From a virus (Duplodnaviria; Caudoviricetes), in IMG/VR virus record IMGVR_UViG_3300035502_000313, positions 32,001 to 96,000 of that record: a stretch of DNA of 64,000 nucleotides; one strand, given 5' to 3'. Positions 11,286 through 59,574 of the stretch are shown piece by piece. Position numbers and translations under genes: made by a program. Under the pieces are notes generated by a model. The model searched no databases. It saw only the letters and a list, made by a program, of their open reading frames with translations, and was not told the DNA's origin. Each line of letters opens with the position of its first letter. Positions within the stretch are counted from its first letter, which is position 1.

Positions 11286-11351
11286 ATATATTATATTAGT
11301 AATAGGATACAGAAATCTGTTATAAAGACCACGTCCTATTGGAGGTATATT
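11286..11351 (+). promoter_or_regulatory. early-type promoter plus structured leader, family B
   Basis: TATATTAT, then an AATAGGA...TCCTATT stem enclosing ACAGA/TCTGT, ending at GGAGG; near-identical copy at 31723-31791 (minus). Confidence 0.7.
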
Positions 11352-12571: not shown

Positions 12572-12613
12572 TTTTCTATGTTATCCTTATTTGCAAAAGT
12601 TATATATAATATT

Positions 12614-12953
12614 AGTGAGTAGAAGATAAATTATAAGATTTATCCTTAGAAAAGCTACTTTTAGTCTGGATGCTGGAATCTTTTATAGAGTAGGCAGTAG
12701 GTAGAGCAAGATTACTGAGAAATCATTGTACTGTAAAAGTATTTTTGCACGTTTTCCAGTAGAACAGGCAATTGTAGAGTAACGCAATTCTGGAAATGGT
12801 TATTTATGTGCAATTCCCTATATATAATAATGGGAATGTGCATTTTTTACCAATATAAAAAAAGTTCCAGATTTGCGTTGCTGGGACTGGACTTATGATT
12901 TTGATATTCCATTTTGAAAAAGAAAGACTGTCGTGAGATAGGCTTTCTTTTTT
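12614..12953 (+). ncRNA. candidate ~340-nt structured non-coding RNA
   Basis: Early-type promoter at 12603-12611, family-A 5' motif, at least three further stem-loops, terminator at 12917-12953, no RBS-led ORF. Confidence 0.6.
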
Positions 12954-13001
12954 GTCTTATTAGAGCAACTTTTTAATAAATGAAAGGAGATGATACCTAA
13001 C

Positions 13002-32977: not shown

Positions 32978-33111
32978 TATATATTATCTATGTAATAAGT
33001 AGAGATAGAATTAGACTATCCTTTGAACAGCTACTTAAAGTCCAGTTCATGACAATAAACCGAGCGTCATACGAAATAAGCCATGTTTCAAAATTTAAGG
33101 AGGAAACAAAA
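32978..33111 (+). promoter_or_regulatory. early-type promoter plus structured leader, family A
   Basis: TAAGTAG/CTACTTA outer stem and GATAG/CTATC inner hairpin; homologous to 12614 and 58991. Confidence 0.6.
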
Positions 33112-34602
33112 ATGAAAGTACGTAAAAATAATATGTCAGACAACAGCAGCACGGAGATTATGAAAAGGATATTTAATAACTTCCTTACATCCGATAGAAG
33201 TTTAATGACCTTTGTTGTTAAACAGGGAAGGAACGATTTCTATGTAGTCATGATAGTAAAGGATGTTGTTGGAGCTAAATACTCTGTTCATCCTGAAGAC
33301 ACAGTCTTTACCTTCGTAGCTCCATTACGTGTATATGGAACACGAAAAATGAAGACTAAATCAAATCATGTTATCAAAGTCCATGTTAATGGTAAAATCG
33401 GAACCATTAACAGTGATGATATATATGAAATCAGCACTCAGAATCTGTTTAAAGATTACTGTTACATATGTAATCTTTCCAAGTCCGATACAAAGAGTGC
33501 CGTAACAGCATTCATAAATTCATCTGCATGGTCAGAGAATGGAATATCTAATGCTGACTTCAATGAAAATGACTTCGAGTCTATCGATGCAGTTAAGATG
33601 ATGCTGTCTGACGAAGAAGAAGTCACAACCGAGGTCGATCAGGAAGTATCTGAAGTAATAGAGGCTGAATATGAAGAAATCTCAACTGAGGTTGCTGAGC
33701 CTGATACAATGTCTGATGAAGACAGAATCCTTGAAGCGTTTATGAATGAGAAATTTGTGTCAGAGCAGATTATCAATATTCATAATGAAATGCTTGACAA
33801 TCTGATAATTCCACCGGATGAAGTTCTTGACTTTATGAAAAGAGCTGATTCCAACTGCAATTATCTGCAGTCATTGCAGGAAAATGAGAAACAGCTTATT
33901 GATTCTCATAAAGTGACAATCGATTCTATCAGTGATCTTAGAGATAAGATAGAGTCTCTTAAAACTAAGCTTACTGAGCTTGAGGCGATATCTGAGAAAG
34001 AAGAATCTCTTGATATTGGACTTAAGAAATCAATCGTTGATATTAAATCCAACGTTGAAACAGATATCCGTAAACTCAACTCATTTATGGAATCTGCAAA
34101 GAGAGAAAAGGCTGCTTCAGAAATGCGTAATCGTATAGACAGTATGCTTAGTGGACTTTCTAACGATGAGGCAGAGTATCTCAGAAGCAAACTTGGAATT
34201 AGTAGTACTCCTGCTATTGAAATGAAGACTTCTGAAATCGTTATCACTGACGGTGCTTGTGTTAGTGACAACGCAAACGGATATTCATGGGCAGAATACA
34301 AATCACATATCGTGGATGTTTGCCAGGGACATTCTCTCCCTAGCAAGCTTGTATTCAAGGCATTGGCTGATGTAATTAAAAATGGCATGACTCATGCTAC
34401 ATTGGCTGATAAACTCAATAGTGTACATTATGCTAACAAAGCTATTGAGTTCTGCAGAAAGTATGGCTATCTTCCTGAGAAGAAGAAATATGCAAAGCGT
34501 AGAGTTTCTTCAGATCAGATAAAAAATAGAGGCAAAGCCATCACTACAAATTCCAAGAAGAGAAAGGAAGCTATCGAAATGGCTTTCAACTCTAACAAGT
34601 AA
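33112..34602 (+). CDS. hypothetical protein with central coiled coil
   Basis: ATG at 33112 behind AAGGAGG; heptad-rich middle; terminator at 34609-34640. Confidence 0.8.
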   Translation: MKVRKNNMSDNSSTEIMKRIFNNFLTSDRSLMTFVVKQGRNDFYVVMIVKDVVGAKYSVHPEDTVFTFVAPLRVYGTRKMKTKSNHVIKVHVNGKIGTINSDDIYEISTQNLFKDYCYICNLSKSDTKSAVTAFINSSAWSENGISNADFNENDFESIDAVKMMLSDEEEVTTEVDQEVSEVIEAEYEEISTEVAEPDTMSDEDRILEAFMNEKFVSEQIINIHNEMLDNLIIPPDEVLDFMKRADSNCNYLQSLQENEKQLIDSHKVTIDSISDLRDKIESLKTKLTELEAISEKEESLDIGLKKSIVDIKSNVETDIRKLNSFMESAKREKAASEMRNRIDSMLSGLSNDEAEYLRSKLGISSTPAIEMKTSEIVITDGACVSDNANGYSWAEYKSHIVDVCQGHSLPSKLVFKALADVIKNGMTHATLADKLNSVHYANKAIEFCRKYGYLPEKKKYAKRRVSSDQIKNRGKAITTNSKKRKEAIEMAFNSNK

Positions 34603-57775: not shown

Positions 57776-58231
57776 TTATAAGGCAGTTCTATTGTGTTCT
57801 ATAACAAATGTAGTTACCTTAAAGTAAACTCTCTTAGCAATAATGTCGAATATTGCATCTTCATTATAATATAATGCTAACTGCTTAAGCATTACAGGAG
57901 ATATTCTATCACTTACAAGTGCACAAATATCTTTACTGATTTTAATTTCGTCTTCTTCTTTAATATACCAATCTGTTTTATATACAAGATTCATTAAAGA
58001 ATACTCTTGGAAACAGCTCTCTATTACTTTATCAAGTCTGGTTTCAATATCTTCAGTTACATTCAAATGTGTGTCTATGTCATATTTTCTAAGCTCTAGT
58101 TCATCATACTTGAATGCAAGCCATTTACTAAATAGCTTAGATATTACAATCTCACTGCACAGTATTACTATCAGAATTATTCCAAAAATAATAAGGGTTT
58201 GGAGATTCAATTGTGTGTAAAGCACTTCCAT
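57776..58231 (-). CDS. membrane protein (N-terminal TM)
   Basis: Hydrophobic LIIFGIILIVILCSEIVI segment. Confidence 0.7.
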   Translation of the reverse strand: MEVLYTQLNLQTLIIFGIILIVILCSEIVISKLFSKWLAFKYDELELRKYDIDTHLNVTEDIETRLDKVIESCFQEYSLMNLVYKTDWYIKEEDEIKISKDICALVSDRISPVMLKQLALYYNEDAIFDIIAKRVYFKVTTFVIEHNRTAL

Positions 58232-58889
58232 AATTCTTCTCACTCCAGTTCTGAATTTCGTTTGCCAATGTTAAAAGTTCATTATCATTAGATTCTGGTT
58301 CTCTCTGAGCTAGTCTTATATAATATAATAACTTAGCACAAATCTCTGGTGTAATACCATTATAATATGTCTTGATTAATTCAGTCCATTTACCAAAAAT
58401 CTGATTAGGATGTACATAGAACAGATCATCGTTATGATATAACTGATGTACAGTTTTACTCATCATAATAATGGGTACTCTATTTTGTTTATGCTCTTCT
58501 CTCAATCCACCAACAATGTGAAATGTTGATACATAACCATATGTATTTAGATAATGCTCGGCGATTAATAATGCAATATCAAATATTGTCAAGATGACAT
58601 GGTTCATTTCTAACTCAGCCATATCAGAGTTTATATTATGTAAATACGAACAATGATCAAGTCCTAGACTCATAAGATTAGCTTTGTATTCTTTATAAAA
58701 CCTGCTATGTCTAAATTGTGCAATAGCGTTATTAATAAATCTACTATAGCTATCAATATCTGCTAATGTTTCTTTGGTTTGCATAAGACTAATTTCATAT
58801 ACAGAACTAGGGCTTCTGAGCGTAGGATTTCCGTTGTTTAAGTATCCTATAATATCAGGAAATTCATTTCCATTAAGAATCATATCCAA
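58152..58889 (-). CDS. HNH-like fold protein, paralog of 16165-16941
   Basis: FRHSRFYK...C...LEMNH..LTIFDI...PIIMMSKTVHQLYH; AACT-N6-TA at 58918-58929. Confidence 0.6.
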   Translation of the reverse strand: MDMILNGNEFPDIIGYLNNGNPTLRSPSSVYEISLMQTKETLADIDSYSRFINNAIAQFRHSRFYKEYKANLMSLGLDHCSYLHNINSDMAELEMNHVILTIFDIALLIAEHYLNTYGYVSTFHIVGGLREEHKQNRVPIIMMSKTVHQLYHNDDLFYVHPNQIFGKWTELIKTYYNGITPEICAKLLYYIRLAQREPESNDNELLTLANEIQNWSEKNYGSALHTIESPNPYYFWNNSDSNTVQ

Positions 58890-58977
58890 TTTACTTACCT
58901 CCTTAACAAGTTGATATTACTAAATAGTTGAGGCTTGAAGAATTGATATATAATTTGTAAAAGTCATAATAATTGAA

Positions 58978-59161
58978 TATATATAATACAAGTGAGTAAG
59001 AGATAATTATAAGATTATCCTAGAATGGCTTACTTGGTCTTAGCTCTAAAAGACCTTTAAAAATTAGGGCAGTTGTTAATACATAAAATGGCATTGCTGA
59101 TATCGGAACAGTCGCAATGCCTAAAACCTATGTTCCATCGTATGTACTAGGAGGTACTATT
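58978..59161 (+). promoter_or_regulatory. early-type promoter plus family-A leader and downstream pseudoknot
   Basis: GAGTAAG/CTTACTT and GATAAT/ATTATC stems; GGCATTGC/GCAATGCC hairpin whose loop GGAACA is complementary to TGTTCC just before the RBS. Confidence 0.65.
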
Positions 59162-59518
59162 ATGACAGACGTAAATAAAATAAACAACACAACAACTACA
59201 GCATCTGAAACAGAAACGAGAAAAAAAGCGGAGGAGTCCATCGACAAGTGGGCTAGTGCTGTTGTCGATCATAAAGTAAAGACAACAGTTGATGAAAAAA
59301 TTAAAGAAGTTGTAGGCGATATTGAGGCTACTGTTAAGGCAGCCATTGGCGATATTAAAACAAAAGTAGGTGATGCGAAAATAGAGGTAAATCCGACTAT
59401 AAATATCACAGTAAATCCGTCAATAACAGTTGGTGGAAACATATCGATTGATGAAAGGAGGATTGATAACGATTTAGACTCCTTTGCAAAACTTCTTGAA
59501 ATCATCGCAAAAAAATAA
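59162..59518 (+). CDS. hypothetical early protein (118 aa)
   Basis: ATG at 59162 behind AGGAGG; terminator at 59524-59556. Confidence 0.75.
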   Translation: MTDVNKINNTTTTASETETRKKAEESIDKWASAVVDHKVKTTVDEKIKEVVGDIEATVKAAIGDIKTKVGDAKIEVNPTINITVNPSITVGGNISIDERRIDNDLDSFAKLLEIIAKK

Positions 59519-59574
59519 AGATAAGAAACGCCGTATTACCAACGGCGTTTCTTTTTAGTCATAAACTTTATTTT

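Follow-up and report, generated by a model that had tools for sequence, protein, structure and literature searches.

Pseudoknots lying in the 5' leader near the ribosome-binding site are known from phage T4 gene 32 and from the rpsO/S15 leader of Escherichia coli, where they are read by a protein and set translation. Riboswitches of the preQ1-I type, which are H-type pseudoknots, constitute Rfam family RF00522. A different kind of 5' element is the 5'-terminal stabiliser hairpin of E. coli ompA and Bacillus subtilis aprE, in which a helix within 0-2 nt of the 5' end leaves no single-stranded tail for RppH, RNase J or RNase E (PMC3997798); for BsRppH, at least two unpaired 5' nucleotides are required (PMC3997798). 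T4-like phages carry promoter-early stem-loop (PeSL) cassettes (PMC2839356, PMC4122927), and phiKZ and 201phi2-1 have structured small RNAs derived from 5' UTRs, which are conserved among related jumbo phages (PMC11512511). The early promoters of phage AR9 follow the pattern AAATATATATTAT-(6N)-G(+1), and the early transcripts of AR9, phiKZ and phiR1-37 begin 6 nt past the promoter box (PMC5312081).

The leader RNA described here is of a known general kind and represents a new, previously undescribed structured family, absent from Rfam and from cultured phages. It was found in a stretch of 64,000 nucleotides of viral DNA (the window), which corresponds to bases 32001-96000 of one 212,182-bp contig with 31% G+C and direct terminal repeats. 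The contig encodes split multisubunit RNA polymerase beta-type subunits, a topoisomerase II, a DnaB-type helicase and an NAD ligase. The nearest cultured kin of the polymerase subunit are found in the Bacillus phages AR9 and PBS1 and in Staphylococcus jumbo phages (~31% identity), and the relatives of the window phage originate from gut samples; on this kinship the contig is assigned, by sequence, to an uncultured AR9-like gut jumbo phage. No match was obtained in Rfam 15, either at the gathering score or at E<=10, with the window, the stretch L001 or the leaders alone as query. A DNA search of the GenBank phage collection gave no leader match, and 185,579 prokaryote genomes contained neither a leader match nor a host look-alike.

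The leader is a clade-specific, promoter-locked, covarying and modular RNA that is shared by unrelated early cassettes, with the cargo exchanged between its flanks. As to function, the reading held with moderate confidence is that the motif seen first, module 1, forms the 5'-terminal domain of a cis-acting modular leader RNA, which controls mRNA stability and translation of portable early-gene cassettes. Whole-leader alignment revealed that module 1 is the first part of a leader of 120-190 nt. It consists of an outer helix (P1), an asymmetric internal loop with an A-rich 3' strand of 9-11 nt, and an inner hairpin (P2).

A first-pass annotation of the window had pointed out three copies of a repeated RNA motif, each behind a TATATWAT box, and at all three places the outer stems and inner hairpins were read as described. 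The promoter-plus-motif pattern gave 3 matches against 0.01 expected by chance. A covariance model built from ten copies and run over the 212-kb genome returned 4 matches, with E values from 1.2e-10 to 1.3e-8 and none further up to E = 1, the fourth copy lying at genome 110304 (L001:2304), 14 kb past the window end. All coordinates in the window refer to the plus strand. The AR9-type early promoter box of copy 1 is located at 12601..12610, with a predicted +1 at 12617, six nt downstream, and its module 1 (12617..12660, E 1.4e-10) comprises P1 at 12617-12622/12655-12660, P2 at 12625-12631/12638-12644, the two arms enclosing an inner hairpin of 12625-12644, and a 3' linker at 12645-12654. Copy 2 has its box at 32978..32987, a predicted +1 at 32994 and module 1 at 32994..33037 (E 1.3e-8), in which P1 is formed by 32996-33002/33031-33037 and P2 by 33004-33008/33016-33020, followed by the linker at 33021-33030. 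For copy 3, the box occupies 58978..58987, the predicted +1 is 58994 and module 1 spans 58994..59035 (E 2.2e-10), with P1 at 58994-59000/59029-59035, P2 at 59002-59007/59014-59019 and the linker at 59020-59028.

Copies in relatives were recovered by pattern scans of IMG/VR and ENA metagenomes and then by model searches of whole records; chance matches were predominant in the broad IMG/VR scans, and filtering was needed. Six related contigs of gut jumbo phages each yielded between 1 and 7 copies with the covariance model, namely 6-7 in G001, 4 in G003, 3 in G009 and 1 each in G002, G004 and G005, and further copies of module 1 were located on ENA gut contigs of about 212-218 kb. The leader is restricted to one phage clade. 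Two relatives with a polymerase subunit at 64% identity, G007 and G008, contained no canonical module 1 copy in a model search of their whole records, and a rearranged leader variant is present in G007. In that variant (L229:1501-1700 and L255:1480-1590), the invariant 9-mer CUAUGUUCC and a GGAAUA partner are kept in other arrangements, one nested in a P1-like helix and one without canonical module 1.

The proposal that structure is conserved over sequence held up in the larger alignment. Among 18-20 distinct sequences from about ten related contigs, 94-100% of cells are paired and 6-7 of 12-13 pairs are compensated, partners slid out of register pair in 27-54% of cells, and no shuffle reaches the observed covariation score, although the aligned sequences all belong to one narrow clade, whose common ancestry inflates the outcome of the shuffle test. 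The model-fitted alignment (18 distinct rows) has 93.5% of cells paired and 7/13 pairs changed on both sides, with a covariation score of 0.290 against 0.155 in shuffles (reached by 0/500) and 27-51% pairing for slid partners. A structure-blind MAFFT alignment of 20 full leaders is paired in 99.6% of cells, with 6/12 pairs double-changed, 0/500 shuffles reaching the score and slid partners at 29-54%. In P1 the exchange typically runs from G-C to A-U, and in P2 from A-U to U-A. Folding of single sequences is no better than that of shuffles (for module 1, z = +0.45, -0.56 and -1.58; for the whole leader, z = -0.72), the helices being A/U-rich and weak.

The first P1 pair is G.U in 10-16 sequences, with G.U pairs found on the sense strand only, and the P2 arms are separated by a loop of anything between 4 and about 19 nt. 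An RNA helix is favoured over a dimeric DNA operator because of these sense-strand G.U pairs and the variable P2 loop. A palindromic DNA operator, for which fixed half-site spacing and strand symmetry are expected, was rejected on the same two features. The linker had been described as a conserved CYT..GAA..G element, and this is partly kept, while the G of GAA and the trailing GCT vary once relatives are added. A kink-turn, for which a 3-nt bulge and then tandem sheared G.A and A.G pairs beside the C stem are expected, was also considered for the internal loop and rejected: the loop before GAA measures 3-4 nt, most copies have A at the would-be 2n position, L216 and L221 show U or A instead of the G of GAA, and 3-4 extra nucleotides separate GAA from P1.

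Module 1 is followed by two further modules, both pseudoknotted. The 3' segment reported behind module 1 is real, but its pairing partner is a downstream GACY and not the hairpin loop and 3' arm. The suggested pseudoknot of this segment with the P2 loop and 3' arm shows no covariation and disappears uncompensated in copies with GUCU or UACU as the arm. Complementarity of RGUC to the P2 loop or arm is nevertheless enriched (15/19 against 4.0 expected, at 4 bp), again without covariation, and may serve as an occasional alternative pairing. RGUC forms the 5' strand of stem 1 of module 2, whose closing pair is A-U in 8 cases, G-C in 7 and G.U in 1 (n=19). For stem 2, a complement of the loop tetramer occurs past an A-rich linker in 18/19 cases against 3.7 expected, and one case is doubly compensated. 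Since the RGUC-GACY stem and the loop-tetramer pairing occur together, module 2 is assigned as an H-type pseudoknot. In copy 3 it covers 59036..59070, with GGUC/GACC as stem 1 and the loop tetramer pairing after the A-rich linker. Copy 2 retains only a weak module 2-like pseudoknot (33039..33065) and lacks module 3; the Shine-Dalgarno sequence (SD) and ATG of a 496-aa ORF come next, at 33112.

Module 3 is a covarying hairpin, the loop of which, GGAACA, pairs with the end of the invariant 9-mer 5-16 nt before the SD; both sides of this pairing change together in the G003 type. In copy 3 the module extends over 59090..59136, with the hairpin at 59090-59097/59114-59121 and the loop GGAACA (59105-59110) paired with 59131-59136, inside the 9-mer at 59128-59136. 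Modules are gained and lost between copies, module 3 being usually present after module 2, and modules 3 and 1 correspond one-to-one in G001 (7/7) and G009 (3/3). CsrA-type GGA sites were considered as well, with two GGAUG in module 2 of many copies, and were rejected on their absence from copies 3 and 4, L110 and L221.

Also supported is the placement of the motif, in cis, at the 5' terminus of early units that are unrelated to one another. At least 17 unrelated families, with ORFs of 80-500 aa, occur behind leaders (the 29 downstream ORFs fall into 17 unlinked BLASTP clusters), and almost none of these ORFs has a Pfam or PHROG family. A typical unit is a short cassette that holds one or two ORFs and closes with a strong terminator. 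The cargo of copy 3 (59149..59553) comprises an SD at 59149-59154, a 118-aa ORF at 59162-59518, for which no Pfam or PHROG family was found, and a bidirectional terminator at 59523-59553. This 12-bp terminator is common to the copy 3 cassette and a convergent GH25/M15 endolysin gene. One leader-driven ORF of 369 aa in G001 (L112:7753-8859) contains an AIPR abortive-infection domain (PF10592, E 4.9e-20), a sequence match which hints that some of the cargo might be active in phage-phage or phage-host conflict.

In a relative that is ~76% identical (L244), the locus syntenic to copy 3 keeps the leader and the terminator and carries an unrelated 80-aa ORF instead. The locus of copy 1 also differs among G000, G001 and G009, and a repeated early-promoter-linked motif bounding ORF replacements, as in PeSL cassettes, is thus seen at the loci of copies 3 and 1. 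PeSL and the leader have in common a short composite early-promoter motif that is repeated, flanks variable ORFans and marks points of cargo exchange between relatives. The PeSL stem-loop, in contrast, is a terminator that precedes a sigma-70 early promoter and works through DNA homology, whereas the leader lies downstream of a virion-polymerase-type promoter, within the transcript, and is a 120-190-nt element with two pseudoknots and RNA covariation. The leader structure is not an upstream terminator of the PeSL type: it begins 6 nt past the promoter box and contains no T-run.

Every copy, in the window phage as well as in the relatives, stands 6 nt behind TATATWAT, and the promoter type on the leader units is the one read by the injected virion RNA polymerase in AR9. 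Because the box spacing is 6 nt, as in AR9, the first base of P1 is the predicted +1 at 12617, 58994 and genome 110304; in copy 2, P1 begins 2 nt after the predicted +1 (32994). A helix start at 0-2 nt from the RNA 5' end holds if the AR9 spacing applies, and RNA-library contigs begin at +16 to +19. These contigs, 100% identical to the window and derived from four gut metatranscriptome libraries, run from 59009, 59010 or 59012 through modules 2 and 3 into the ORF. They begin in the P2 loop, and as contigs they cannot show RNA ends, the first 15 nt being unobserved; there is no cover over 58000-59008 or after about 59421, and no evidence was drawn from these gaps. Loss of terminal nucleotides in library making, or a real processed end, could account for the start at 59009-59012 in four runs. 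If the transcript truly began at +16 to +19, P1 and P2 could not form, since it would start in the P2 loop. At the other side, the contigs of three RNA runs end within 6 nt at 59416-59421, about 100 nt before the stop of the 118-aa ORF, and no sequence feature was found that explains these ends.

The leader, borne by a subset of early units with promoters of the virion-polymerase type, would act in cis as RNA. P1 is expected to pair the transcript from its first nucleotide and thereby to leave no single-stranded 5' tail, and a 5' end sealed in this manner would shield the triphosphate from an RppH-type pyrophosphohydrolase and from 5'-end-dependent RNases of the RNase J or E type. The base of P2, which is conserved in sequence, might combine with the internal loop and both pseudoknots into a shared platform for setting translation and stability, with a trans-acting protein as its most likely reader; protein binding is a possible role of module 1. 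The outcome would be a single post-transcriptional regulon of plug-in accessory early genes. The ompA and aprE stabilisers resemble the leader in their helix within 0-2 nt of the 5' end, but they are simple hairpins of single genes, whereas the leader has a sequence-conserved bulged hairpin on many genes, followed by pseudoknots, and its stabilising effect is putative. The T4 gene 32 and rpsO/S15 leaders share with it the pseudoknots close to the ribosome-binding site; they are autoregulatory, act on one gene and have a known protein partner, in contrast to a leader on at least 17 unrelated genes with a presumed partner.

A bolder version, put forward tentatively and rather unlikely, is that the leader is a self-contained device, composed of a 5'-sealing helix and tandem pseudoknots, which either is recognised by a virion-delivered or very early phage factor or itself stalls a host 5'-to-3' exonuclease as viral xrRNAs do, and which defines a regulon of swap-in accessory or anti-defence genes transcribed by the injected polymerase. 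If true, such a self-contained RNA device would offer newly acquired genes a natural expression adaptor of the plug-and-play type. Jumbo phages that have RNA polymerases of their own depend little on host transcription, and post-transcriptional control of their early accessory genes is almost unknown. The leader offers a handle on how jumbo phages stabilise and co-regulate early messages and plug new genes into the early programme; it is short enough for direct in vitro and reporter work, and might be of use as a natural 5' UTR insulator.

Control of stability and translation by a leader of this kind has to be weighed against a riboswitch, one of the functions first suggested for the motif, in which the leader, notably its pseudoknots with A-rich linkers, would bind a small molecule and switch translation of the ORF. 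H-type pseudoknots with A-rich third loops do stand beside the ribosome-binding site and several loop nucleotides are invariant. Module 2 in particular resembles preQ1-I in its 4-5-bp stem, short second stem and A-rich third loop of similar size, but differs from it in its longer loops, in the lack of an Rfam match at the thresholds tried and in having no queuosine gene link. A possible switch is seen in UGUUCC, which is predicted by nested folding to pair with the SD instead of the loop partner in about 5-6 of 26 leaders, with a mean SD unpaired probability of 0.41; this alternative pairing is not general. The riboswitch reading found no support, and is judged improbable: even at E = 10 the leader alone matches no Rfam family, typical copies have no terminator-type platform between leader and ORF, the downstream genes make up no pathway but at least 17 ORFan families unrelated to each other, and modules come and go between copies.

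The leader or a 5'-UTR fragment of it might instead act off its own mRNA, as a decoy that titrates a host factor or defence protein, or as a small RNA. Such a role would suit copy 1, which has no ORF for about 385 nt; the region behind its module 1 (12663..12960) holds a degenerate module 2 that has lost the GACY partner and then ~300 nt without ORF. A second early-type promoter box occurs in this non-coding stretch at 12826-12835, with a predicted start near 12835, and a weak terminator-like hairpin lies between it and a 398-aa gene. The 1-7 copies per genome behind early promoters and the 5'-UTR-derived small RNAs reported in jumbo phages (PMC11512511) would suit a trans-acting RNA. The small RNAs of phiKZ and 201phi2-1 are, like the leader, structured 5' UTR RNAs kept among related jumbo phages, but they are single-locus products of premature termination upstream of one conserved gene, whereas the leader is a multi-copy family that starts from +1. 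Nearly all copies of the leader, moreover, are directly followed by an SD and ORF whose distance from module 3 is fixed, and the search of 185,579 genomes gave no host look-alike. At the copy 1 locus itself, a stretch of about 300 nt that is non-coding in G000 corresponds in G009 to a full and normal leader with a 124-aa ORF. Because of this syntenic arrangement, the 'ncRNA' of copy 1 may, judging from sequence comparison, be a decayed cassette, and action in trans has little probability.

Action of the nascent 5' structure on the phage RNA polymerase, either by put-type processive antitermination or in promoter escape, would account for the strict +1 position in every copy, with stem-loops directly behind early promoters as in HK022 put. 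Such +1 hairpins are, however, common to early units without module 1: at the predicted early starts, the first paired base falls within +1 to +3 in 17/28 cases against 146/400 in random controls. A hairpin at +1 is a general habit of the early units of this phage, and module 1 is a specific elaboration of it. The typical units are also short, running through one or two ORFs to a strong terminator with no internal terminators seen, and modules 2 and 3 keep their position with respect to the ribosome-binding site, not the promoter, which makes a polymerase-directed element quite improbable.

The predicted early promoters of the phage mostly carry N3-AGT before +1, and the transcript begins G-A-(U/A)-A-G, a preference not reported for AR9. 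There is overlap between this promoter-proximal preference (RAUAG near +1 in many early units) and the 5' strand of P1, and part of the conservation of that strand may reflect a DNA-level role. A DNA-level element as the whole explanation, be it an operator, a downstream promoter element or a PeSL-like recombination repeat with an incidental RNA fold, would agree with this overlap and with a repeated promoter-linked sequence flanking swapped ORFs, but is very improbable in view of compensatory changes in two helices with arms up to 45 nt apart, of sense-strand G.U pairs that would be C.A mismatches on the other strand, of P2 arms with no constant spacing and of the fact that pairing is not selected by recombination alone.

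Besides the leader with module 1, a second leader family was observed at 11301-11345 (+) in the window and, outside it, at genome 19982 (+) and 139608 (-). Its architecture is the same, with a stem that starts at +1, an inner hairpin, a 3' linker of 13 nt and a closing strand directly adjoining the SD. The second family begins nearly as module 1 does (AAUAGGA), and both families may share ancestry.
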